Shown in pieces: positions 4,203 through 23,753 of a stretch of 25,285 bases of DNA. Numbering within the stretch: position 1 is the stretch's first letter; each line of letters opens with the position of its first letter. The stretch comes from a virus. Its lineage: Duplodnaviria > Heunggongvirae > Uroviricota > Caudoviricetes. The stretch lies in the IMG/VR virus record IMGVR_UViG_3300031420_000399; one strand, written 5' to 3'. A program made the position numbers and the translations under genes. Below the pieces are notes generated by a model that was given only the letters and a program-made list of their open reading frames with translations, was not told the DNA's origin and searched no databases.

Positions 4203-4361
4203 ACTGGGTTCGCTCGATCTTTAGATGCACCTGGCTCACAGTAGCTGCGCTCCTGCGCGACCCTAGGTCGGTAGTTGCGTAACCCGATAGCCTTTAGCTA
4301 TCGAGGGCTTAGACTGCCTCTGGGCGCATCATTCAGCGTTAGATAGCACCTTCGAACAGCT

Positions 4362-4380
4362 TGCTAAAATCTACGGAGGA
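4362..4380 (+). promoter_or_regulatory. Extended -10 (TG-C-TAAAAT) and RBS GGAGGA
   Basis: TGCTAAAAT at 4362-4370, GGAGGA at 4375-4380, ATG at 4388. Confidence 0.6.
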
Positions 4381-4387
4381 AAATCCA

Positions 4388-5644
4388 ATGGCCGCAAAGT
4401 ACCACATCAGCGACAACGGCATGCCGGGGAAGTGCAGCGCTTCTAGCCCCGACAGCTGCCCGAAGACTCAGGCAGGAGACGGATTCCACGGAACCCTGGA
4501 GGAGGCCACTCAGGAGTCGCAGTCGCGCTTCGAGGCTCAGCTGGGAGCCTTCGTGACTGCCTCCAAGAAGGAAGAGACGGCTGAAGCCCCAACAGCCGAG
4601 GGTTACACCGCAGCTCGCTTCGATGGTTACACTGCAGCTGAGCTCAGAACTGAGCTCGCCATGTGGGACACCGAGAACCCGGCAGAGGACACCACCGATC
4701 TAGAGATGGCGCTCGTCGCTGCAGAGGCCCGAGAGGCCGCAGAGTCCTCCACTGATTCGTCCGTAGAGATCTACAGGCACCCCCAGGGCAAGTTCGTCCA
4801 GGTCTACGCCGATGGAAGCGTTCGCGCATTCGACAAGGATGGCCGAGAGGCTAAGACCTCCGCTACCGCCGAGAAGCTCCGCGAGGGCTATGGATCCTGG
4901 AAGCGGGATCACAGCGCTGCTAAGCCGGCTGTCTCTAAGGAAGACGCAGATGCCATGATGGACGAGCTCGTATCCTCCGAGATGAACTACGAGAGGGCTA
5001 GGAACGAGCTCAGCCAGGGCTTCAAGGAGCGTAAGGCCTACGATGAGGCCTATGGTCTCAAGGAAGGTCGCGCCTGGCACACCGCCTACGACTACTCTTC
5101 TTTTGGAGGGATGGCTTCCCGTAAGGTCAGGGGCATGAACCCCAAGAACGGCCCGACCCAGTACACTCCTACCCAAGCCCAGATCGACCAGCAGATCGAT
5201 CAGAGGAAGGCCTTCGACAGGGCCACAAAGTGGCGCGAGGAGGCACAGACAAACCTCGAAGAGGCAGGCCTTGGCCACAAGATCCCGGACGAGGGCAACA
5301 CGGTTCGAGTTCGCACCCAGGCTCAGAAGTGGCTCCTCAAGAACGAGCTCCAGGGCCAGATCTCCGACGGCCACTGGGAGAACAGTGGCGGCAACGCCTG
5401 GGAGGACTGGTCCAACGCAAAGGTCATCGTAGACCCCGACAACCCCGGCCGGAACTTCAACACCAGCAAGGACAACTACCAGCTCAACTCCAAGGCTCTC
5501 CTCGATGTTGTCGGAGACCGGATGGTGGAGGATGTCCAGAAGAGGACTGGCAAGGTAGACTACAACGCAAAGGCCATGAACGCCGATCTCAAGGACCTCC
5601 GCGAGATCTTCAAGACCAAGCGTGGCTTCGTAAGCGGCAACTGA
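4388..5644 (+). CDS. Hypothetical multidomain protein, 418 aa, with an N-terminal YH/Cys/Cys/His module
   Basis: The strong RBS places the start at 4388 (MAAKYHISDNGMPGKCSASSPDSCP...FHG) rather than 4361. C-terminal globular segment ELQGQISDGHWEN. Followed by a terminator. Confidence 0.85.
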   Translation: MAAKYHISDNGMPGKCSASSPDSCPKTQAGDGFHGTLEEATQESQSRFEAQLGAFVTASKKEETAEAPTAEGYTAARFDGYTAAELRTELAMWDTENPAEDTTDLEMALVAAEAREAAESSTDSSVEIYRHPQGKFVQVYADGSVRAFDKDGREAKTSATAEKLREGYGSWKRDHSAAKPAVSKEDADAMMDELVSSEMNYERARNELSQGFKERKAYDEAYGLKEGRAWHTAYDYSSFGGMASRKVRGMNPKNGPTQYTPTQAQIDQQIDQRKAFDRATKWREEAQTNLEEAGLGHKIPDEGNTVRVRTQAQKWLLKNELQGQISDGHWENSGGNAWEDWSNAKVIVDPDNPGRNFNTSKDNYQLNSKALLDVVGDRMVEDVQKRTGKVDYNAKAMNADLKDLREIFKTKRGFVSGN

Positions 5645-5655
5645 TTCCCCTTCTC

Positions 5656-5701
5656 AGTCGGGCGGCATTACTGGAAACGGTGATGCCGCCCGATTGTGTT
5701 T
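5656..5701 (+). terminator. Intrinsic terminator
   Basis: TCGGGCGGCAT-TACTG-GAAA-CGGTG-ATGCCGCCCGA forms a ~16-18-bp stem with G.U pairs and a GAAA loop, followed by TTGTGTTT. Confidence 0.8.
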
Positions 5702-5761
5702 CGAGCCAGATCCGCGTAGGATGCTCTCATCTGTTCGTGGTATTGGCTGGAAGTAGGAGAC

Positions 5762-6079
5762 ATGTTGGTGACCTCTCAGCTGATTTGCTACAGAAGCGCC
5801 TCCGCAAATCTTTCCGTGAGCCCCTCCGTGGGCCTGGCTTTCATCGGAAGCCTCGTCGCTCAGGATCGCCGCCAGGGCCACGCTACAGGCCTACTTCAGC
5901 TGATCTGTGACAGGGCTGACAGCGAGGGGCTCGAGCTCAGGCTCACCGTAGGCTCCGAAGGCGGACCCGAAGACGCCTCTGACGCTGATCTCATTCGGTT
6001 CTACGGAAAGTTCGGCTTCAAGCAGCTCACCGTTGACAACGCCTACTACCTCGGTCGTCAGCCGACATCTCGAGGGTAG
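5762..6079 (+). CDS. Small GNAT-family acetyltransferase-like protein (possibly N-terminally short)
   Basis: Acetyl-CoA-binding motif A (RRQGHATGLL) and a motif-B-like LIRFYGKFGF. An in-frame TAG at 5717 limits N-terminal extension. Confidence 0.6.
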   Translation: MLVTSQLICYRSASANLSVSPSVGLAFIGSLVAQDRRQGHATGLLQLICDRADSEGLELRLTVGSEGGPEDASDADLIRFYGKFGFKQLTVDNAYYLGRQPTSRG

Positions 6080-6088
6080 CTCTAGTGT

Positions 6089-6117
6089 TTGCGAATTGGG
6101 TGGCCATGGTGTACCGT
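6089..6117 (+). promoter_or_regulatory. SigA-type leaderless promoter of pncB
   Basis: TTGCGA (6089-6094), 17-bp spacer, TACCGT (6112-6117). ATG at 6125 follows 7 nt later with no SD. Confidence 0.6.
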
Positions 6118-6124
6118 TGATCGC

Positions 6125-7492
6125 ATGAGTACATTCAGCCCCCTGGAGTTCGACTTCAACTCCGAGCCTCATTCCCCCGCCCTGAAGCTCGACTTCTACG
6201 AGCTCACCATGGCCGCTGCAGCCCTGAAGGCAGGCACTGCCCACAAGCGCGCCACCTTCGAGCTCTTCGCTAGGAAGCTCCCCACGGGGCGACGCTATGG
6301 AGTCGTCGCGGGCGTGCAGCGAGCCATCGAAGCCGTACAGGACTTCATCTTCACCGAAGAGCAGCTCGACTACCTCTCCACGAAGCCCGGCATCACCGAA
6401 GAGCTCATCGACGAGCTCGCGACTTTCAGCTTCGAGGGTAGGCTCACCGGCTACCCCGAGGGTTCGCTCTACTTCCCCTACAGCCCCATCCTCCGGGTCG
6501 AGGGTACCTTCCTCGAGTGTGTGCTCCTCGAGACCGTGCTCCTCTCGATCTACAACCACGACTCGGCCATCGCATCGGCAGCTTCCCGCATGGTTCAGGC
6601 AACTCACGGGAAGTTCGGACTCATCGAGATGGGATCCCGACGGACCCATGAGGAATCTGCCATCGCCGTAGCTCGGGCTGCCTACATCGCAGGCTTCCAG
6701 GCAACTTCCAATGCTGAGGCTGGAATGCGCTACGATCTCCCGATCACAGGCACCGCAGCCCATGCCTTCACGCTCTCCTTCGAGGATGAGCGGGAGGCCT
6801 TCCGGGCTCAGATCGATGCCCTCGGAGTGAGCACGACTCTCCTCGTGGACACCTATGACATCCAGCAGGGGATCCGCAACGCCATCGAGGTGGCGGGCCC
6901 GAAGCTCGGCGGAATCCGCATCGACTCGGGCGATCTCCATGAGGAGACGGTGAAGGCTCGACAGCTCCTCGACTCCCTGGGCGCCACGGAGACGAAGATC
7001 ATCCTCTCCAGTGACATCGATGAGTACAGCCTCAGCGAGATGGTAGAGCGCGGCACCCCAGTGGACGGGGCAGGCGCCGGCACTCGAGTCGCAACCGGCT
7101 CCGGCCATCCGACCTGTGGTATGGTCTACAAGCTTGTGGAGCGTGAGGCCGAGGATGGCTCCATGGTTCCCGTGGCCAAGCGCGCCGCCGGAAAGAAGTC
7201 CCTGGGCGGACTCAAGACCCCCATGCGGACCTACGATGCTGACGGCCACTACAACCGGGAGATTCTCTTCACGGCAGCCAACGGCGATCCCCGCACCATC
7301 GCTACTCTGAAGGAAGAGATCCTGGAGCCTCAGCAGATCGAACTTCTTACTCCCGAAGGCTCAGACTATGACGGGAGCCTCAGGGCAGCTCAGGCGCGAC
7401 TCCGAGAGGAGCTCACTTGTCTTCCCGAAGAGGCCCTTTCTGTGATCGCTGGAGACCCCTTCCTCGAGGCTCAGCCCTACGAGTCGCACTGA
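6125..7492 (+). CDS. pncB: Nicotinate phosphoribosyltransferase, 455 aa
   Basis: Actinobacterial NAPRTase motifs: DFYELTM, FELFARKLP..RRYGVVAG, EMGSRRTHE, GTAAHAF (phospho-His), LLVDTYD, IRIDSGDL, ATGSGHPTCGMVYKLV. Start placed at 6125 from the promoter geometry. Confidence 0.95.
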   Translation: MSTFSPLEFDFNSEPHSPALKLDFYELTMAAAALKAGTAHKRATFELFARKLPTGRRYGVVAGVQRAIEAVQDFIFTEEQLDYLSTKPGITEELIDELATFSFEGRLTGYPEGSLYFPYSPILRVEGTFLECVLLETVLLSIYNHDSAIASAASRMVQATHGKFGLIEMGSRRTHEESAIAVARAAYIAGFQATSNAEAGMRYDLPITGTAAHAFTLSFEDEREAFRAQIDALGVSTTLLVDTYDIQQGIRNAIEVAGPKLGGIRIDSGDLHEETVKARQLLDSLGATETKIILSSDIDEYSLSEMVERGTPVDGAGAGTRVATGSGHPTCGMVYKLVEREAEDGSMVPVAKRAAGKKSLGGLKTPMRTYDADGHYNREILFTAANGDPRTIATLKEEILEPQQIELLTPEGSDYDGSLRAAQARLREELTCLPEEALSVIAGDPFLEAQPYESH

Positions 7493-7514
7493 AGAAGCTT
7501 TAAGGAATAGAATC

Positions 7515-8669
7515 ATGGCAACGAAGAAACGCTACAGCCTGACAAGCCCTCCGACCTTTGCTCCTGATGCACGACAGTGGGCCGACTCTTTCCGGCCAGG
7601 TCCCGGAGATGCTGAGGCTCACATCGACTCTCTGGGAACCCCGCTTTCGAATCACTGCATCTTCTGCGGACACGAGAGCGATGGGGATCCGCGGGATCAT
7701 ATCTTCCCCACATCTAAGGGAGGTCTCACCGTCCCCGGCAACATGCTTCGGACATGCCCCAAGTGCAACTTTGGCCGGCAGAACATTTCAGTGATCGACT
7801 TCTGGCGTCGGCAGGATCCAGCTACGCGCTGGTACAAGGATGAGAAGAGTTTCTTCGAGGCCTTCGAGCGACTCGTGGCGCCATTCAAGCGCGATTATCC
7901 TGAGCACTACGAGAGAGCTATGGCTATCCAGGAGGGTTCCCAGTCTGCCCTTGAGGAGCTCTACCGCATCGTTGCTGAGTATCAGTCAACGCTGCCTCGC
8001 TTCGAGTTCTTCTCAGATCAAAAGTCTGTGGCCAAGGGTCTCGAGGAGTTCTACCTGAAGACTGAGGGTTCCAAGCGGTCCCTGGACAACGCTTCTGCCT
8101 TTGCCAAGCTCAGCTCCCGAAATGACAGCTTTGCCCAGGCTGTAGTAAGGATTGCTGACAGCGCATCGGGCTCGAAGAGCACACAGCAGACCTTCCGCTC
8201 CAATGTGGCTCGCGCTGCTTTGGCCGCTGAGAAGTGCATCGACTTCGAAGCGAAGAAGTCCCAGCAGAAGAAGCAGCTGAAGCTCATGCTCACTGAGGCA
8301 AAGTCTGGAGGGGTAGTGACTCCCTACCGTAAGCTCTTCGAAGGATTGGGTAAGAAGCACAAGCACCTTGCTACCGTAGCTGCAGAAAAGGAGAGGGAGC
8401 TCAACAGAGAGGCATCAGCTGCTCAGACTAAGCTCCGCCAGGAAGCGCGCTTGACCATGGAGAACTTCCTCGAAGGTAAGCTCAAGGAAGTCACACCCAG
8501 AGATTCTCAGATGCTCGACTACGGCTTTGGCCACCCGAAGACCAATCGACTCGCTATCTTTGAGCGAGGCATCGATGAAGTCGCTTCTGGAAGAATTCAG
8601 TACCCCCAGGGCTACACTCCGAATGCAAAGGCTCGAGAGGCCATCAAGAGGCGCAGAACTCTGAGCTGA
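7515..8669 (+). CDS. HNH endonuclease domain protein with a long basic/helical C-terminal extension, 384 aa
   Basis: CIFCG...DHIFPTSKGG...GNMLRTCPKCN is the CxxC-HNH-CxxC (McrA/HNH_5-like) signature. AAGGA RBS. Confidence 0.85.
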   Translation: MATKKRYSLTSPPTFAPDARQWADSFRPGPGDAEAHIDSLGTPLSNHCIFCGHESDGDPRDHIFPTSKGGLTVPGNMLRTCPKCNFGRQNISVIDFWRRQDPATRWYKDEKSFFEAFERLVAPFKRDYPEHYERAMAIQEGSQSALEELYRIVAEYQSTLPRFEFFSDQKSVAKGLEEFYLKTEGSKRSLDNASAFAKLSSRNDSFAQAVVRIADSASGSKSTQQTFRSNVARAALAAEKCIDFEAKKSQQKKQLKLMLTEAKSGGVVTPYRKLFEGLGKKHKHLATVAAEKERELNREASAAQTKLRQEARLTMENFLEGKLKEVTPRDSQMLDYGFGHPKTNRLAIFERGIDEVASGRIQYPQGYTPNAKAREAIKRRRTLS

Positions 8670-8714
8670 CCTTTCGTCACCAGATTCACACAGACTGAGA
8701 GAAAGAAGAACACC

Positions 8715-8864
8715 ATGGCCAACGGCGAGAACGACATGACCATCCAGGACTGGGCAGAGCTCGACCGGCTCTGTCGCAAGGCTGCCTGGGACTCGACCTC
8801 CACGGAGCAGTCCAAGGAGATCCTCCTCAATGTATCCGCCTACGCGAGCCGTAGGAACCACTGA
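8715..8864 (+). CDS. Small hypothetical protein, 49 aa (not in the supplied ORF track)
   Basis: MANGENDMTIQDWAELDRLCRKAAWDSTSTEQSKEILLNVSAYASRRNH*. Purine-rich leader (GAGAGAAAGAAG), and a TGATG stop-start overlap with 8864. Confidence 0.65.
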   Translation: MANGENDMTIQDWAELDRLCRKAAWDSTSTEQSKEILLNVSAYASRRNH

Positions 8865-9172
8865 TGGCTGAGAGCCCTGAAGCTCAGAAGACCGGTGAGC
8901 GACCACTGATCCATATCTGTGAGGTCTGTGGTGTCGAGGAGATCATCACTCCCAGTGATGCCTTTAACGGGGGCTGGGACTACCCTCCGCGCATGGGTCA
9001 TTTCGGGGTGATTTCACCGCGAACCTGTGGAAGCTGCCCCATGGATGGTACTGTCTACTGGGCACTGATGTTCGAGAAGAAGTCGGTCACCGAGCTCAGC
9101 GATAGCCAACTCAAGGTCATCGAGCGCATTCAGGCAGAACCCGAGAGCATCCTTCCGAAAGAGGCCCCATGA
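8864..9172 (+). CDS. Small Cys-rich (putative Zn-binding) hypothetical protein, 102 aa
   Basis: CEVCG...GWDYPPRMG...CGSCP. Coupled to both neighbours (TGATG and ATGA overlaps). Confidence 0.75.
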   Translation: MAESPEAQKTGERPLIHICEVCGVEEIITPSDAFNGGWDYPPRMGHFGVISPRTCGSCPMDGTVYWALMFEKKSVTELSDSQLKVIERIQAEPESILPKEAP

Positions 9173-10002
9173 GAACCATCGAGAACGACATCCCAGCAGA
9201 GCTCGTCGAGCTCGCTGAAGAGGCAATGGGCCTGGGACTCCACTCAGTCAACCTGGGCTTCCAGTACATGGGATCGGACTTCGTCAGCCCCATCGAGTGG
9301 TCCCTGTCCCTCCACAAGATCGAGCCGGACAATCGATCCACAGCTCGCAGCTGGCTGAGCTTCACCGCCATGCGGGGAGACGACGGGCCGACGGCCTACA
9401 TCCCCAGCGAAGACCCGGCAGACTGGGGTGGAGGAAGCTACTGGAACATCGACCAGGTTCGCGAGTGGCTTCAGTGGCCCATCGAGGCCAACCCCGATGA
9501 GAAGTACAGCCAGTCCTGGAGCCCGGCTACGGACCCTGAGCTCCGAGAGTACTTCCTTCAGCAGTGGTCCCTCTTCATCGAGGGCGCTCGCAGCGGATGG
9601 ACCATGGAGCGCAAGGTCAACTGGCGCACCATGGACATCTTCAACGGGAGCCGGGCTGAGAGGGGCGAAGAGCTCGATCGGTTCCCCGGTCTCTCCCTGG
9701 GCTGGGAGGCCAGCAACAGCTTCTACAACATGGACGGTCACCCCGCCAATCGGGATACCGGTGCTCCCGTCTCTATCGGGAGCTGGAGCATGCTGAATCA
9801 CGGTGAGGAAGAAGAGTTCTTCCGGAAGACCGTGAGGCCCGAGAAGATCAGCAGGGATGTGGTGGAGGCAGAGCTGAGCTCTACCGCTCCCTGGTTCGTC
9901 CGGGTTGCTGTCAACGATGAGGAGAATGAGCAGTGGCTCCACTATCCGGAGGCGCTCCAGGATCCCGACGAAACGGTGCAGGAAGCACCGGCTCAGAAGT
10001 AG
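9169..10002 (+). CDS. Hypothetical Trp-rich protein, 277 aa
   Basis: ATGA overlap with the upstream gene and element-typical codon usage. No family recognised. Confidence 0.8.
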   Translation: MRTIENDIPAELVELAEEAMGLGLHSVNLGFQYMGSDFVSPIEWSLSLHKIEPDNRSTARSWLSFTAMRGDDGPTAYIPSEDPADWGGGSYWNIDQVREWLQWPIEANPDEKYSQSWSPATDPELREYFLQQWSLFIEGARSGWTMERKVNWRTMDIFNGSRAERGEELDRFPGLSLGWEASNSFYNMDGHPANRDTGAPVSIGSWSMLNHGEEEEFFRKTVRPEKISRDVVEAELSSTAPWFVRVAVNDEENEQWLHYPEALQDPDETVQEAPAQK

Positions 10003-10025
10003 CAAGAGGCCGGAGGTAACAGACC

Positions 10026-10628
10026 ATGGCAACAGCTAAGAAAACCCAGAGAAAGCGCCGGGCGCTCCTCATCGTGGATGTCCAGGAGGACTTCGTGGAG
10101 GGCGGTAGCCTCGGAGTCGATGGAGGTCGGGAGCTCGCTGAGCGCATTGCTGTTGATCTCCTGCCTTCAGATTGCCCCTACGATCTGATCGTCACGACTC
10201 AGGACTGGCACATCGATCCGGGAACACACTTCTCTGATCAGCCAGACTTCGTTTCGAGCTGGCCGGTTCACTGCGTGGCCGGAAGCTCAGGTGCTGAGAT
10301 TCTCCCCGCGATCACTGACGCGCTGAAGCTCATTTCGACTCCCCAGGACAGGATCCTCAAGGGTCAGTACGAGGATGCCTACAGTGGATTCATGGGCGCC
10401 AACGGCTACGGCGATACGCTCGCTCAGGTTCTCAATGAGAGCGACATCGAGCGCGTGGATGTGGTGGGCATCGCCTCTGACCACTGCGTGGCTGCCACGG
10501 CCAGAGATTCAGCTGCAGAGGGATTCAGAACACGGGTGCTCAAGGACTACACAGTCGGCATCGATTCGAAGAGGATCGACGCGATCTACGATGTCGAGCT
10601 CCCCGGGCTAGGAATCAAGGTAGCATAG
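10026..10628 (+). CDS. pncA: Nicotinamidase/pyrazinamidase, 200 aa
   Basis: LIVDVQEDF..GGSL (catalytic Asp), TQDWH, WPVHCV.GS.GA (metal ligands), KGQYEDAYSGF (catalytic Lys), GIASDHCV (catalytic Cys). GGAGG RBS. Confidence 0.95.
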   Translation: MATAKKTQRKRRALLIVDVQEDFVEGGSLGVDGGRELAERIAVDLLPSDCPYDLIVTTQDWHIDPGTHFSDQPDFVSSWPVHCVAGSSGAEILPAITDALKLISTPQDRILKGQYEDAYSGFMGANGYGDTLAQVLNESDIERVDVVGIASDHCVAATARDSAAEGFRTRVLKDYTVGIDSKRIDAIYDVELPGLGIKVA

Positions 10629-10630
10629 GG

Positions 10631-10652
10631 GTGAAACCGATAGTGGTTTCAC
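10631..10652. repeat. Perfect inverted repeat GTGAAACC-N6-GGTTTCAC
   Basis: 8-bp arms with a GATAGT spacer, immediately after the pncA stop, with no U-tract. Confidence 0.6.
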
Positions 10653-10671
10653 ATCGATCTAAGGAAGCACA

Positions 10672-10989
10672 ATGAGAGCTCGTCGCGGTGGGCAGTTCGC
10701 AGACTTCATCGAGGCCATGCGCTACCCTCTCATCCGGAGACTCATTCTCTTCCCTATGGTGACTATGACTTCAGGTTTGCTGATTCTGTTCGCGGGCTGG
10801 ATCCTACGGGTAACGCTGAATCCGATCACCCGACCAGACTACGACTGGAAGCTCGGTCTTGTGTTCGCGGGGCTCTGGCTCTTGGGGCTGATCATAGGCA
10901 TAGTCGGTGGCGTCAAGCTGAAGCGTGGCGTGAGCAAGCTCAACAGGATCTTAGAAGCCATCGAGCGAGAGGAGACCAGTGGCAGTTGA
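10672..10989 (+). CDS. Small membrane protein, 105 aa, two TM helices
   Basis: Hydrophobic segments LILFPMVTMTSGLLILFAGWIL and LGLVFAGLWLLGLIIGIVGGV. AAGGA RBS. Confidence 0.75.
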   Translation: MRARRGGQFADFIEAMRYPLIRRLILFPMVTMTSGLLILFAGWILRVTLNPITRPDYDWKLGLVFAGLWLLGLIIGIVGGVKLKRGVSKLNRILEAIEREETSGS

Positions 10990-11176
10990 AAACGAACTCA
11001 CCGAATCTCCCTGGGATAGTCCTGACCCGAGCTATAAGCTCGTCCCTCCGGTGAATCCCAAGAGCGGAGAGCCAGTGGAGCTCTATGTCTGTCGATCCTG
11101 CGGTGGGGCTGTGGTTGGAAGAAAGCTCCACTCCAGGTGGCACCGAGAGCAGTCGGGCAGAAGGAGCTGGCCATGA
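10979..11176 (+). CDS. Small putative Zn-finger protein, 65 aa
   Basis: GTG start overlapping the upstream gene. CRSCGG...H..WH (C2H2-like). Confidence 0.55.
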   Translation: MAVENELTESPWDSPDPSYKLVPPVNPKSGEPVELYVCRSCGGAVVGRKLHSRWHREQSGRRSWP

Positions 11177-11235
11177 GCCCGAAGATTTCCAGCGACACAG
11201 CATCACCTACACAGCTAGCGTAAGGAAGCACACCT

Positions 11236-13701
11236 ATGGCCAACGGAGATGACCAAGAGGTCACTGAGATCACTCCCGAAGAAAGCCAGAAGCTCAGAGA
11301 GCTCACTGACTCCATCGTGGAGACAACCGCAACGGAGGACCTCCACAGTGACATCCTCGAGCTCGCAGAGCCCGTTGTGGCTCTCGCTCGCAGCCTGGAG
11401 ACTTCTTCGAGGATGGCAGAAAGCCGCCACGGGCTCGAGGGAGCAGGCTGGGATTCCTTCGAGGTCTATCTGATCTTGAGCAACCTCATCGAAGACCTTC
11501 TCCTCACGGAGGATGAGCTCGAAGATGACAAGGCCGACGAGGTCGAAGGCCTCATCAGAACCAGGGCAGCGAGCTACAATGTGCCCCTGGCAGCGAGCGG
11601 AGAATCTGCTCCGCCTGTAGCCGACTTCGAGATCGACCGCATCTATGAAGCCCTCGCCCAGCGCATCGAGGATCTCGACAGGTCGATCGCCAGCCAGGAA
11701 CTCCTAGAGCTCTTCGGCGAAAAGCCCGCTCCAGACTTCGTCATCGAAGGCCGCGAGAATAGCTGGGCTGATCCGGCCGTAGTTGAGGCTGCCACCAACT
11801 TCTACCTCGGCTCAGTGAGCCCCGGGAGGCTCCGTGAGCTCATCGGAGAGGAAGCCGAAGAGCTCGCCAACAGCCCCGTGACGATCGGCTCGGCATCCTG
11901 GGACCTCCTCCCCGAGGACCTCAAGGCTATCCCGGACTACCTCGTTGAAAAGCTCAGCAGCCTTGGCCTGGGAGGTATTCACATCGGAACGGCTACTTCA
12001 CAGGACGATGAGCCAGTGTTCTGGGACATCGCCGACGAGTCCGGCACTGATTCGCTAGAGGACGATCTAAGCCCTCAGGAACCTGAGACGGACACGACCG
12101 ACGAAGGTGAGTGGGACCTCGCTGAGATCGCGCCAGGTGACGAGCTAGAGGATGATGGTGACTTTGCTCTGGGCTCCGGTGACGATTTCCAGGGAAACCA
12201 TGGCCACGATCACGGCTCCAACGGCCATGTGCATCAGATCCTCGACGGGGAACTCCGGGGACTCGACGACTACGACGGTGAACCGGCCAACGAGCTTGAG
12301 ACCGCGACCTTGGCGCTCATCGCAGAGGGTTTGATCTACGCTGAGCTCTCTGAGATCTTCCTCCAGGACCTGGTAGCAGAGGCCGATCCGCTGATCCTTC
12401 AGGCCCGGTCCCGTGGCTCAGACTGGTGGCTCACGAGCGAGGCCACCATGGCTGTTGCAGACCTGGTTTCTCAGGTGCTCCTTGCAACTGACTGGCCTCG
12501 CGATCTTTCCTCCGCAGAGGTTCTCGCTCACCGGGAAGAGCTCCAGAAGAGGGCTGCGATCTACCCCCTGGACCCGGAGCCCGAAGCTCCCACCAGAGCA
12601 GAGTCCCTTGGGGTTCCCTCGGTCAGCGAGCGATTCGACTTTCTCCGGAGAGAACGAGGAGAACGCACAGCGAACTCGCTCGTCGAGTCGGAGCTCAACG
12701 ATCTGAAGAACGCAGTGACAGGTCACCTCGGCTCCAACCCCACTGCCTTCCTCATCGAGGACCTCGGCGAGCTCCTCTCCGACGAACAGCTTGAGCGAGG
12801 CAGAACCTACGGGATCAGCCGGGCGCTTTGGAGGGAGATCTGGGCCCTCGGGGTTGAGCTCCTCCTCGGCATCGAAGCTGAGAGCGAAACGCTTCAGCCC
12901 AGGCTCGACGGAGCCCAGAGGTCAGCGCTGAATGCAGCTGCTCAGAGCTATCGAACCGACGAGTACACCGAGGAAGAGTTCCTCAAGCACTACGACTCCT
13001 CCCGTTGGCCCTCCTTCGGAGTGACGGTTGACCTGAGCATCTTCACCATCCGGGATGGGAAGCTTCAGGTGCTCCTCATCGAGCGGGGCAACCACCCCGA
13101 GAAGGGCAAGTGGGCACTCCCTGGAGGCTTCGTCAATCCCGATGAGTCTCTAGATCGGGCAGTCCGCCGGGAGCTCCAGGAAGAGACGGGTGTCGACCTC
13201 GAGGCTACCGGCTACCTTGAGCAGGTAAAGAGCTACGGCTACCCAGGTCGTGATCCCCGGGGATCTGTGGTCTCCACGCTCTACGCGGCACTGATCCCGA
13301 ACGATTACCTCCCCGAGCCAGAGGCTGCGGATGATGCCGCCAAGGCTCGTTTCGTTCCCGTGGAGGAAGCCCAGAGCAGCGGCTACACTCTTGCCTTCGA
13401 CCATGAGATGCTCCTCAGGGATGCGCTCCTCCGAATCCGCTCCAAGATCGAGTATTCGCCAGTGGTCTTCGATTTCCTCGACACGGAGCCCTTCACCATC
13501 GAAGAGCTTCGAGCTGTCTATGAGGCCGTCTGGGGCATGCAGATCCTCCCCTCTGATTTCAGGAGAAGGATCAGCCAGGCCCAGGGCGCACTGATCCCCG
13601 TTCCCAATGCCCGCGGCGAGGAGCCCCGCTGGTTCCGGGGCACGGCGAATCGCTTCTTCCCGCCCCTCGACATCCTCGAAGTTGAGTTCGTTCGGGAGTA
13701 G
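11236..13701 (+). CDS. NrtR-type Nudix hydrolase-winged helix protein fused to a ~590-aa acidic N-terminal region, 821 aa
   Basis: C-terminal ~230 aa: VTVDLSIFT, WALPGGFV, intact Nudix box GFVNPDESLDRAVRRELQEETGV, GRDPRG, LAFDH, and FTIEELRAVYEAVWG....SDFRRRI (NrtR-like wHTH). AAGGA RBS. Confidence 0.85.
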   Translation: MANGDDQEVTEITPEESQKLRELTDSIVETTATEDLHSDILELAEPVVALARSLETSSRMAESRHGLEGAGWDSFEVYLILSNLIEDLLLTEDELEDDKADEVEGLIRTRAASYNVPLAASGESAPPVADFEIDRIYEALAQRIEDLDRSIASQELLELFGEKPAPDFVIEGRENSWADPAVVEAATNFYLGSVSPGRLRELIGEEAEELANSPVTIGSASWDLLPEDLKAIPDYLVEKLSSLGLGGIHIGTATSQDDEPVFWDIADESGTDSLEDDLSPQEPETDTTDEGEWDLAEIAPGDELEDDGDFALGSGDDFQGNHGHDHGSNGHVHQILDGELRGLDDYDGEPANELETATLALIAEGLIYAELSEIFLQDLVAEADPLILQARSRGSDWWLTSEATMAVADLVSQVLLATDWPRDLSSAEVLAHREELQKRAAIYPLDPEPEAPTRAESLGVPSVSERFDFLRRERGERTANSLVESELNDLKNAVTGHLGSNPTAFLIEDLGELLSDEQLERGRTYGISRALWREIWALGVELLLGIEAESETLQPRLDGAQRSALNAAAQSYRTDEYTEEEFLKHYDSSRWPSFGVTVDLSIFTIRDGKLQVLLIERGNHPEKGKWALPGGFVNPDESLDRAVRRELQEETGVDLEATGYLEQVKSYGYPGRDPRGSVVSTLYAALIPNDYLPEPEAADDAAKARFVPVEEAQSSGYTLAFDHEMLLRDALLRIRSKIEYSPVVFDFLDTEPFTIEELRAVYEAVWGMQILPSDFRRRISQAQGALIPVPNARGEEPRWFRGTANRFFPPLDILEVEFVRE

Positions 13702-14340: not shown

Positions 14341-15036
14341 ATGCGAGTCATCATCGCCGAGTGCTCAGCAGTCTACTCAGGTAGAGGTGCAAGTACCCTG
14401 TCCCGGGGAATGCGCGCTATCTTCATCAAGAGTGACGGCTCAGTTTCGATCCACAATGACAATTCCAACAAGCCCCTGAACTACATGAAGACCGCTTCCC
14501 AGACGGAGACGGTCAACAGCGATGGGGAACAGGTCTGGACCTTCGATGCCCGCCATGAGACCCTGGAGATCACCATCCATGAGTCCATCGGCTTCTTCGA
14601 GCAGCAGCTCCTCGACAAGGGTACTGAGCCAGGCCTCAAGGTCGACGGTACTGAGGCCCAGCTTCAGCAGTGGCTCTTCGAGAATCCCGACCGGCTCGGC
14701 ACCGGCATCGTCACCCTTCAGCGAGAGTTCCAGACCGGCGCTGGTGCCGTGGATATCCTCGCAATCGGCCCCGACGGTCACCCCATCGCCGTTGAGATCA
14801 AGCGCACGGCCCCGACTGCAACTGCTGATCAGGTTCGCCGCTATGTGGAGAACATGCGAGTGCTCCCGCCTGCGAACTTCCCCCATCCCCACACTGGTGA
14901 GATCCTTGAGCTGGACTTCACGAAGACCACTGGGATGATCGCTGCCCTTGATCTTCGACCTAAGCTCGTCGACCTTGCCGCCAAGCGTGGAGTTCCGGCC
15001 ATCGAAGTTCCCGCCTATTGGAAGCTCGACAGTTGA
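14341..15036 (+). CDS. nucS: Mismatch-specific endonuclease NucS/EndoMS homologue, 231 aa
   Basis: MRVIIAECSAVYSGR, IKSDGSVSIH, KPLNYM, GL..DG.EAQLQ, REFQTGAGAVDIL, AVEIKR, DQVRRY match the actinobacterial NucS N-domain and RecB-like catalytic motifs. Confidence 0.9.
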   Translation: MRVIIAECSAVYSGRGASTLSRGMRAIFIKSDGSVSIHNDNSNKPLNYMKTASQTETVNSDGEQVWTFDARHETLEITIHESIGFFEQQLLDKGTEPGLKVDGTEAQLQQWLFENPDRLGTGIVTLQREFQTGAGAVDILAIGPDGHPIAVEIKRTAPTATADQVRRYVENMRVLPPANFPHPHTGEILELDFTKTTGMIAALDLRPKLVDLAAKRGVPAIEVPAYWKLDS

Positions 15037-22535: not shown

Positions 22536-23753
22536 ATGACGACAGATCTACGAACAGAGAGCAGCACCATGACAGCAGGGAACCACTACGACCTCCTCGT
22601 AGTAGGAGCGGGACTCTTCGGTCTCACCGTGGCCGAGCACGCAGCCAGCGAGGGCCATCGCGTCCTCGTCCTCGAGCGCCGGGAGCACATCGGAGGCAAC
22701 GCCTACGACGAGCTCAACGAGGAGACCGGCGTGACCAAGCACATGTACGGCTCCCACCTCTTCCACACTTCCAACGAGAAGGTCTGGGACTACCTCAACC
22801 GCTTCACCGAGTTCGCTCCCTACGAGCACCGGGTCTTCGCCAACAGCGAGGGGCAGGTCTACTCCTTCCCCATGAACCTCGGGCTCATCGGCCAGGTCTA
22901 CGGCAAGTACTTCACCCCAGAAGAGGCCAAGGCGCTCATCGCACAGGAGGCCTCTGAGATCGACTCCGCCGACGCCAAGAACCTCGAAGAGAAGGCCATC
23001 AGCCTCATCGGCCGGAAGCTCTACGAGAAGTTCATCGCAGGCTACACGGCCAAGCAGTGGCAGACCGATCCCAAGGAGCTCGATGCCTCGATCATCACCA
23101 GGCTCCCCGTGCGCTACAACTTCGATGCTCGCTACTTCAATGACCGCTTCCAGGGTCAGCCCGCCCGGGGCTACACGGCCATGTTTGAGGCCATGGCAGC
23201 CCACCCGAACATCGACATCCGCTACGGCGTAGACTACCTCGCAGGCCGTGCTGAAGGCCGCTACGACGGCATCCCCACCGTCTACACCGGCCCCCTGGAC
23301 GAGTACTTCGGCTACGAGCTCGGAAGGCTCCCCTGGCGCACGGTCGATCTCATCGACGAGGTCGTAGATGTGGATGATTTCCAGGGCACTGCAGTGATGA
23401 ACTACAACGACCGGGATGTGCCCTTCACTCGGATCCTTGAGCACCAGCACTACGACCCTCAGGCAGCTGAGAACAAGGTTGACGGCAAGACCATCATCAC
23501 CCGGGAGTACTCGCGCTTCGCCGAGCCGGGCGACGAGGTCTACTACCCGATCAACAGCGATGAGGTCCGAGAGCTCGCAGCTGCCTACAAGGCCAAGTCC
23601 AAGGCTGAGGAGGATCACAATGTGTTCTTCGGAGGGCGCCTATCGCAATACCTGTACATTGACATGCATCAGGCTGTGAGCAGCGCCATGCACCTTTACA
23701 GCAAGAAGGTGGGCCCTCTCCTGGCCGATCATGCAACTTCTAGCGAAGGGTAA
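22536..23753 (+). CDS. glf: UDP-galactopyranose mutase, 405 aa (alternative start 22569)
   Basis: FAD motif VVGAGLFG..VA, ERREHIGGNAYD, H.YG.HLFHT, GYTAKQW, RLPVR...D.RYFND.FQG.P..GYT, YTGPLDEYF, YPIN, GRL..Y.Y.DMHQA. Confidence 0.95.
   Translation: MTTDLRTESSTMTAGNHYDLLVVGAGLFGLTVAEHAASEGHRVLVLERREHIGGNAYDELNEETGVTKHMYGSHLFHTSNEKVWDYLNRFTEFAPYEHRVFANSEGQVYSFPMNLGLIGQVYGKYFTPEEAKALIAQEASEIDSADAKNLEEKAISLIGRKLYEKFIAGYTAKQWQTDPKELDASIITRLPVRYNFDARYFNDRFQGQPARGYTAMFEAMAAHPNIDIRYGVDYLAGRAEGRYDGIPTVYTGPLDEYFGYELGRLPWRTVDLIDEVVDVDDFQGTAVMNYNDRDVPFTRILEHQHYDPQAAENKVDGKTIITREYSRFAEPGDEVYYPINSDEVRELAAAYKAKSKAEEDHNVFFGGRLSQYLYIDMHQAVSSAMHLYSKKVGPLLADHATSSEG

Follow-up and report, generated by a model that had tools for sequence, protein, structure and literature searches.

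Our analysis of a 25,285-nt stretch of viral DNA (IMG/VR record IMGVR_UViG_3300031420_000399; in its full length, the window; locus L001 is the same sequence) suggests that three of its genes, pncB, pncA and a gene for a long NrtR-type Nudix protein, belong to a module that is probably a derived copy of a bacterial salvage operon for nicotinamide adenine dinucleotide (NAD+), taken up by a lineage of very large phage-like elements. In the mechanism that we propose, PncA would convert nicotinamide to nicotinate, and PncB would use nicotinate, phosphoribosyl pyrophosphate (PRPP) and ATP to make nicotinate mononucleotide; the NadD and NadE steps that follow, as well as PRPP synthesis, would be supplied by the host, with distant relatives of the element bringing their own NadE. 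The Nudix domain would split ADP-ribose into adenosine monophosphate (AMP) and ribose-5-phosphate, and the set as a whole would let an infected cell turn both products of NAD+ cleavage back into NAD+ faster. In the ancestral form of the module a short NrtR would repress from a palindromic operator and ADP-ribose would lift this repression; in the lineage of the window that ADP-ribose circuit has seemingly been lost or rewired, and NrtR would have gained an acidic extension of 575 residues.

For the two enzymes, profiles, structures and individual residues give a consistent picture. PncB scores above the cut-off of the NCBIfam equivalog model NF006698 (554.9 bits for a cut-off of 531) and of TIGR01513 (407.5 bits for a cut-off of 297.4), contains the Pfam domain NAPRTase_N (E 1e-30), and has as its closest solved structure the nicotinate phosphoribosyltransferase (NAPRTase) of Enterococcus faecalis, 2F7F (E 1e-59). 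Its best models are all of the NAPRTase type; the name of the matching PHROG family is, however, 'nicotinamide phosphoribosyl transferase'. On the strength of these matches PncB would prefer a nicotinate-type substrate. The closest solved structure for PncA is that of Mycobacterium tuberculosis (Mtb) PncA, 3PL1 (E 2.9e-45), and both the catalytic triad (residues aligned to Mtb D8, K96 and C138) and the metal site (residues aligned to Mtb D49, H51, H57 and H71) are kept in the alignment to it and are invariant in nine phage homologues; such an Asp-His-His-His metal site is the criterion that sets nicotinamidases apart from other hydrolases of the isochorismatase fold. PncA falls below the cut-off of the NCBIfam equivalog NF008623, a model of the bifunctional nicotinamidase/pyrazinamidase (78 bits vs 174). 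Since mycobacterial PncA is matched far more strongly, we take the low score as a sign that this model is a poor fit for high-GC homologues.

The product of the third gene is 821 residues long, whereas the solved members of the NrtR family have 228-273. Over residues 577-787 it can be aligned with Shewanella NrtR, 3GZ5 (E 1e-31), to which the predicted fold is also similar (Foldseek template-modelling score of 0.70 by target), and 3GZ8, the Nudix domain of NrtR with bound ADP-ribose, matches the Nudix domain as well. Pfam scores are 80 bits for NUDIX and 28.1 bits for NrtR_WHD (cut-off 27), and the protein lies below the NCBIfam equivalog cut-off of NF050029 (156 bits vs 400). Read from the translation, the Nudix box G-x5-E-x7-R-E-U-x-E-E-x-G-U is complete, and 11 homologues all share E637, R645, E646, E649 and E650. 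The Nudix box is intact in NuhA, an NrtR homologue from Synechococcus PCC 7002 that is a highly active ADP-ribose pyrophosphatase (PMC2330246), and degenerate boxes go with lost activity in Slr1690, soNrtR and MsNrtR (PMC2330246; PMC6800001). Judged by its motif, the Nudix domain of the long protein most likely takes ADP-ribose as its ligand and substrate, with AMP and ribose-5-phosphate as the products. The recognition helix of the winged-helix domain reads S-D-F-R-R-R in the long form and S-N-F-R-R-K in short forms; the aspartate, D774, is invariant in 11 long forms, and the short phage and aligned bacterial forms have Asn there.

The extension that precedes these domains carries a net charge of -91 over residues 1-575. 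Two helical domains are predicted in it, at about residues 10-205 and 347-570, with an AlphaFold predicted local distance difference test (pLDDT) of 85-90, and between them lies an acidic, His-rich linker (236-346; pLDDT <50) that is predicted to be disordered. The fold finds no match at E <0.1 in the PDB or in the AlphaFold DB clusters, and when 1.84 billion representative proteins are searched exhaustively with HMMER, the extension turns up in 7 clusters only, of 689-824 aa, all of them NrtR fusions. A 475-kb contig (L136, 12097-13773) encodes a 558-aa homologue in which a diverged extension is joined to the Nudix domain without the winged helix, and no downstream frame of L136 encodes a winged helix; from these sequences selection seems to keep the Nudix part rather than the DNA-binding part. 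That the extension acts as a mimic or docking element is speculation. An earlier, sequence-only reading of this DNA had placed pncB, pncA and an NrtR-type gene here, on the plus strand and with intact motifs, and our profile, structure and residue checks agree with it; its description of the third product as an NrtR-like protein of Nudix and winged helix-turn-helix domains holds for the last 245 residues, the other 575 being an unrelated acidic extension.

The grouping of these genes is conserved. Five further contigs, the close relatives L002-L004 and the mid-distance relatives L005 and L006, share the order pncB...pncA...long nrtR...nucS, with PncB 86-89% identical to that of the window in the closer contigs and about 70-71% in L005 and L006. 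These last two have a GC content of 43% vs 60% for the window and keep the same order of pncB, pncA, long nrtR, nucS and glf, an indication that related elements live in hosts whose base compositions differ widely. Co-occurrence across related elements, by which the sequence-only reading proposed to check its case, is borne out: pncB, pncA and an NrtR-type gene stand together in all ten related contexts (L002-L006, three IMG/VR genomes, and contigs of 697 kb and 475 kb), and another 21 metagenome contigs, the longest of 547 kb, carry the whole operon. In three complete IMG/VR genomes of 345-420 kb the arrangement is pncB-(nadE)-pncA-(65-aa protein)-nrtR, and the NrtR of these distant phages is of normal size (260-275 aa). 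The operon pncB-nadE-pncA-nrtR is also found in bacteria, namely in Chthoniobacter flavus and in a Bdellovibrionota genome, and because these have the same operon we take that of the phages to have been captured from cells. The form pncB-nadE-pncA-Cys/His-nrtR with a short NrtR is likely the ancestral one, and the module of the window is a derived one, without nadE, with unknown genes and an HNH endonuclease inserted, without a detectable operator, and with the NrtR extension gained.

In the PncB tree the clade of the window falls into one group with the remaining metagenomic relatives and with the copies from IMG/VR; the genomic context was checked for part of this group, and a long branch leads from it to the NrtR-adjacent PncBs of named bacteria. 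At least 60 viral contigs in IMG/VR carry a PncA-like gene; on about 21 of them it adjoins a NadE-like gene, and on 4 it is found with NrtR. Single-protein scans of IMG/VR with PncB and PncA gave no match; it was the alignment-based scans that found the relatives. In one of the IMG/VR genomes (L009, 398 kb), a 509-aa protein with a Cas12f1-like (TnpB-type) TNB domain lies at 4281-7044, between pncB and nadE, and the pncB match is shortened there.

In the phages with a short NrtR, a 21-bp palindrome, TAA-n3-TCA-n3-TGA-n3-TTA, is found 55-86 nt 5' of pncB or nrtR; in the 420-kb relative the site reads TAAAGGTCA-n3-TGACCTTTA. With a matrix built solely from the sites of L135 and of the 345-kb complete genome (G001), the palindrome outscores every other 21-mer at 9 of the 12 loci from the other phage group. 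Among relatives the operator keeps its arms; the central 3 nt vary and are inverted between relatives. When G001 is omitted from the matrix, the nrtR-proximal site ranks second in that 345-kb genome (score 16.8; shuffle maxima 13.4-17.4). The top matrix site in G001 (21.4; L050 1675-1695, about position 261675) lies just 3' of a -10-like hexamer and before a gene for a 314-aa protein with a weak vWA match (E 6e-4). Because NrtR repressors are released by ADP-ribose (PMC2330246), the short-NrtR phage operons appear wired to stay on during NAD+ cleavage, and for these relatives sensing of ADP-ribose through NrtR appears well supported by the predicted sites.

What precedes pncB in the window has a different look. 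The -10-like hexamer (TAnnnT) of a putative promoter ends 7 nt before the ATG, which suggests that pncB has its own promoter and, since the hexamer is so near the start codon, that its mRNA would be leaderless; a scan with an E. coli-type consensus finds no promoter at pncB. A block TGTAC(C/G)GTTGA is kept before pncB in the window and in L002-L004, and its exact occurrence in the window is confined to this place. We considered the block before pncB, TGTACCGTTGA, as an operator and rejected it: a GT-n7-AC core is present in L002 and L004 only and the block is not palindromic, and we read it as promoter sequence.

The setting of the module is phage-like. All sizeable open reading frames (ORFs) of the window lie on the plus strand, its GC content ranges over 50-61%, neither a tRNA nor an Rfam family, hence no NAD+ riboswitch, is found in it, and the majority of its proteins have no match in Pfam, PHROG or NCBIfam. 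Not one ACGT tetranucleotide occurs in the 25,285 bases of the window or in the three close relatives L002-L004; the 43% GC relatives L005 and L006 have 21-23 copies. Under the window's own codon usage about 6.4 copies would be expected in the NAD genes, and there are none. Because this purge covers the NAD genes, we regard them as long-term residents rather than misassembled host DNA. The window's own PncB is found on contigs of up to 307 kb, and the contigs of its close relatives reach 346 kb. A DNA search of the GenBank phage collection with the window gives a single weak, unannotated match, and no genome in a collection of 199,900 species contains the window. Terminal repeats are present in the three complete relatives (345-420 kb), to which CheckV assigns a completeness of 100%, and large ORFs of G001 match 118 PHROG families, including DNA polymerase, DnaB-like helicases, a UvsX-like recombinase and RIIA. 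Endonucleases of the HNH and GIY-YIG types are part of the element's gene set. The element is not a chromosome, and the mobile setting that the sequence-only reading had assumed is supported by the absence of ACGT, the single coding strand, the family-less genes and the recurrence on phage-like contigs. It is best read as a huge phage, though it may instead be a giant plasmid-like element. An actinobacterium is the probable host, because the nearest bacterial NrtR domains, at 47-52% identity, come from Actinoplanes, Acidimicrobiales, Streptomyces and Glycomyces, because the PncA relative is mycobacterial, and because NucS and UDP-galactopyranose mutase (Glf), both typical of actinobacteria, are encoded nearby.

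Two of the proteins encoded between the NAD genes are conserved members of the module (Table 1). One is the 65-aa Cys/His protein, kept in L002-L007, L009 and L135 with C38, C41, H51, W54 and H55 invariant. Its size across the giant-phage lineages ranges over 55-76 aa (L007 9794-9976; L009 9710-9862; L135 9982-10212), and it is present in 15 of the 21 metagenome operons; it has no Pfam match and does not stand beside the bacterial NrtR genes that we fetched. The other is the Trp-rich protein of 277 aa, for which neither Pfam nor PHROG nor NCBIfam gives a match. Its copies in L002-L004 share 64-70% identity with it, and the product of a 281-aa gene in L136 that overlaps the start of pncA shares 45%. 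We rejected the idea that it is a degenerate NadE, as it has no family match, no PP-loop motif in its sequence and no similarity to phage NadE; a hint from the Atlas that it is made of HEAT-like repeats (score 0.81) is at chance level. The HNH endonuclease gene has no homologue in any related locus read, relatives having a 49-aa ORF in its place, and from this distribution it looks like a recent, lineage-specific homing-endonuclease insertion outside the pathway. Of the interleaved genes that had been called orphans before, one is this HNH gene and another encodes the conserved 65-aa protein.

Downstream of the NAD module, every close and mid-distance relative repeats the order of NucS and Glf, with 73-94% identity; the NucS of G001 is 50% identical and lies about 50 kb away from the NAD module of that genome. 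The Rhs protein has a 78% identical copy in L003 and is absent at this position from L002 and L004. Its last 216 residues are unmatched among solved structures, and in the whole protein Pfam finds nothing past the RHS repeats and DUF6531.

Table 1. Features of the NAD module and its surroundings in the window
Feature	Position	Strand	Basis or remark
Putative pncB promoter	6089-6117	+	-35-like TTGCGA 6089-6094, 17-nt spacer, -10-like TACCGT 6112-6117
pncB, nicotinate phosphoribosyltransferase, 455 aa	6125-7492 (ATG 6125)	+	NCBIfam, Pfam, PDB
HNH endonuclease	7515-8669	+	Pfam HNH_5 and PHROG HNH endonuclease families
Conserved small protein, 102 aa	8864-9172	+	No family match; in L003, L005 and L006 at 52-78% identity
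Trp-rich protein, 277 aa	9169-10002	+	Directly 5' of pncA, always so in this lineage
pncA, nicotinamidase, 200 aa	10026-10628	+	Alignment to PDB 3PL1
Small ORF, 105 aa	10672-10989	+	No family match; sole match is L001 (same sequence)
Cys/His protein, 65 aa (C-x2-C-G ... H-x2-W-H)	10979-11176	+	Directly 5' of the nrtR-type gene
NrtR-type protein, 821 aa	11236-13701	+	NrtR part is the last 245 residues
N-terminal extension, residues 1-575	11236-12960	+	Two helical domains, acidic linker
NrtR-type Nudix domain	12964-13440	+	Nudix box 13126-13194
NrtR winged-helix DNA-binding domain	13453-13668	+	Pfam NrtR_WHD; aligned to the DNA-binding part of 3GZ5
NucS endonuclease	14341-15036	+	Pfam
GH16 protein	between NucS and Rhs in list order	+	
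Rhs protein, 1787 aa	16437-21800	+	15 RHS repeats, DUF6531; lower-GC stretch
UDP-galactopyranose mutase (Glf)	22536-23753	+	
Protein matching PHROG homing-endonuclease family	start 23760	+	

Several points weigh against a phage-borne salvage module that returns cleavage products to NAD+. The enzyme activities of PncA and PncB are predicted from sequence. Capsid, portal, sheath and terminase are undetected in the three complete relatives with four Pfam models (Terminase_6N, Terminase_6C, Phage_sheath_1C and Gp23, the last of which also gave no signal in any control genome), and because these virion families are undetected the phage status rests on the IMG/VR call, the replication and recombination genes and the style of the genomes. 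No operator is found in the window, in L002-L006 or in L136 with the phage matrix, a generic scan for 21-bp palindromes or the mycobacterial consensus. The route is also incomplete: as the sequence-only reading had noted, family searches of the window's ORFs find no nadD, nadE or prs, and no nadM either, and the complete relatives, all three of which have nadE, have no clear nadD and no prs. Finally, most hosts of this kind probably own pncA and pncB already, so the gain for the element would be one of flux only.

These points bear on what the module could do. Because of the genes that are not in the window or in the complete relatives, and unless they lie elsewhere in the genome, such elements would depend on host NadD and Prs, and that of the window on host NadE as well; a metagenome scan for phage NadE found none on contigs of the window's lineage, with patterns specific to the other phage group, and we give this little weight. 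Most bacterial NadD enzymes prefer the nicotinate nucleotide, which fits the choice of a deamidating route. The case for the route that the sequence-only reading proposed is weakened, the route being incomplete, without nadE in the module and without a clear nadD or any prs in the complete relatives. ADP-ribose sensing through NrtR, which had been proposed for the window, finds its support in the 21-bp palindrome of the short-NrtR relatives; for the window's own element transcriptional sensing is doubtful, because no operator is found there, the recognition helix has an N-to-D change and the winged helix has been lost in the sister lineage L136.

How could an element profit from such a module? 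As for the selective benefit, which we can only infer, we consider a general supply of NAD+ during a long infection to be its probable chief use, and escape from NAD+-depleting defences a serious possibility that falls short of probable; the two are compatible. A stricter version of the latter, in which the module is a dedicated counter-defence, that is, a fourth, deamidating pathway of NAD+ reconstitution against NADases of the Sir2, TIR, SEFIR and DSR types, seems to us possible and on balance somewhat doubtful. The substrates of the module are exactly the two products of NADases, the operon of the short-NrtR relatives sits behind an operator of a repressor family that ADP-ribose releases (PMC2330246), the known pathways NARP1, NARP2 and NARP3 are cases of phage NAD+ rebuilding used against such defences, the module lies in an accessory arm adjoining the Rhs toxin and other conflict-type genes, and our literature search turned up no experiments on a phage nicotinamidase as a countermeasure to NADase defences. 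However, the route takes four ATP-consuming steps, at least two of which (NadD, Prs) and here NadE also are host-encoded, the same operon is ordinary housekeeping in bacteria, and no ADP-ribose-responsive operator is seen in the lineage of the window. It is unlikely, in our view, that two bolder claims hold jointly, namely that the giant-phage set is a widespread, ADP-ribose-triggered 'deamidating NARP' that beats NADase defences and that the NrtR of the window has turned from a repressor into a new effector whose acidic extension mimics DNA or protein so as to engage a host factor upon binding or hydrolysis of ADP-ribose.

One can also ask whether the long NrtR is mainly a transcription factor for phage genes or for NAD genes of the host, with the Nudix domain as mere ligand sensor and an acidic extension that modulates DNA binding, perhaps by mimicking DNA within the protein. 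The winged helix and the F-R-R-R of its recognition helix are kept in 11 of 11 long forms, operators are clear in the short relatives, the best and second-best sites of G001 (at the vWA-like gene and the nrtR promoter) suggest a small regulon, and the charge of -91 would suit a mimic; yet no operator is found in the window or its close relatives, L136 retains extension and Nudix domain with no winged helix, and the catalytic Nudix residues are invariant, which a pure sensor would not need, the studied non-catalytic NrtRs having degenerate boxes (PMC2330246; PMC6800001). We would not expect this to be the main role. Still less probable, we think, is that the Nudix domain acts on immune signals such as the cyclic ADP-ribose isomers of Thoeris, or detoxifies ADP-ribose, with PncA and PncB as a separate metabolic add-on. 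Enzymes of phages that break down ADP-ribose-based signals and supply NAD+ synthesis have been reported (PMC13232231), and no lineage is without the Nudix domain, not even where the winged helix is lost, but the domain is of the NrtR or ADP-ribose pyrophosphatase type and its linkage to pncA and pncB is constant. The view that no mobile element is involved and that an actinobacterium simply has its usual NAD salvage genes here on its chromosome is largely refuted and very improbable. The actinomycetotal affinities of the NrtR domain (47-52% identity), the mycobacterial PncA relative and the neighbouring NucS and Glf would fit a chromosome; against it stand 25 kb and three related contigs free of ACGT, genes on one strand that are mostly family-less and accompanied by homing endonucleases, the want of any tRNA or Rfam family, a gene order that is the same at 43% and 60% GC, PncB relatives that, where context was read, are all on phage-like contigs and form a clade apart from the sampled bacterial PncBs, and the failure of every genome in the 199,900-species collection to match the window. 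A salvage operon captured by a very large phage-like lineage is the reading we hold probable.

Depletion of NAD+ is among the commonest anti-phage strategies. The proven phage answers, NARP1, NARP2 and NARP3, do not include a deamidating route, and if the PncA-PncB route proves to act as a countermeasure too, two genes would suffice for a phage to plug into host enzymes where NadD takes only the nicotinate nucleotide, and more anti-defence genes would be worth seeking in actinophages and giant phages. The short-NrtR relatives bring the idea of a phage operon that is switched on by ADP-ribose, the product of a host defence enzyme. Moreover, the extension and the Cys/His protein, both conserved, without known relatives and tied to a well-understood sensor, offer a tractable way into giant-phage biology.

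Among known systems, the nearest are the bacterial Preiss-Handler (salvage I) operons regulated by NrtR, such as nrtR-pncA-pncB-nadD-nadE in Clostridium and pncB-nadD-nrtR-nadE in cyanobacteria (Rodionov et al. 2008, PMC2330246). The same three protein families are clustered there as here, and the short-NrtR phage relatives share the 21-bp palindromic operator; the module of the window differs in lying on a phage-like element, in having neither nadE nor nadD, in its interleaved unknown genes and 65-aa protein, in its lack of a detectable operator, and in the 575-residue NrtR extension, which is found only in this lineage. With NuhA the long NrtR shares family membership and a complete Nudix signature, but NuhA is of normal length and the long protein is extended, with an activity that is predicted from its motif.

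Phage systems for rebuilding NAD+ have been described as Adps with Namat (NARP1) and Nampt with Nmnat (NARP2), in a source that mentions neither PncA nor PncB (bioRxiv 2024.02.11.579819), and as PnuC with NadR (NARP3; PMC13464706); no family of these three enzyme pairs is found among the ORFs of the window. NARP2 and the NadV-NatV pair of vibriophage KVP40 (Nampt and a bifunctional Nmnat-Nudix enzyme) resemble our module in starting from nicotinamide, in having a Nudix partner of the ADP-ribose type and in the presumed restoration of NAD+. They follow, however, an amidated route through nicotinamide mononucleotide and have their own adenylyltransferase, whereas here deamidation comes first, the phosphoribosyltransferase is of the nicotinate type and there is no adenylyltransferase; in KVP40 the Nudix domain is fused to Nmnat and here to a winged helix. 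NARP1 and NARP3 are likewise phage modules that rebuild NAD+ under NADase attack, but they have no enzyme in common with this one, and NARP1 reuses ADP-ribose directly as ADP-ribose pyrophosphate, whereas here ADP-ribose would go to AMP and ribose-5-phosphate. A survey of NAD+ and ADP-ribose metabolism in viruses lists NadV, NadM and NadR as the only phage enzymes of NAD+ synthesis (PMC9503650).

The closest precedent in phages is that of the NAD-jumbo phages (Microbiome 2024, PMC11662467), which carry pncB-nadD-nadE clusters, with phage pncA mentioned and with support of propagation or counter-defence proposed as their role; that paper mentions neither NrtR nor Nudix and holds no defence experiments (PMC11662467). 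Both have Preiss-Handler genes on a jumbo phage or, in ours, a jumbo-phage-like element, but the NAD-jumbo phages come from the gut, mainly from Bacteroidota, and are defined by a genome of >200 kb that encodes the whole of a salvage or Preiss-Handler route. For our lineage the contig size reaches 307 kb, and the three complete relatives have pncA, pncB and nadE with no clear nadD, so they lie outside that definition. The route is less new than the sequence-only reading proposed, since Preiss-Handler genes were reported in jumbo phages in 2024 (PMC11662467) and pncB-nadE-pncA-nrtR is an ordinary type of bacterial NrtR regulon (PMC2330246). Both the bacterial operon and the phage theme of NAD+ rebuilding are known, and the module is a variant of them that is adapted to phages; what is new in it is the deamidating entry, the predicted ADP-ribose-responsive operator of the giant-phage relatives, the NrtR extension of this lineage and the two conserved partner proteins.

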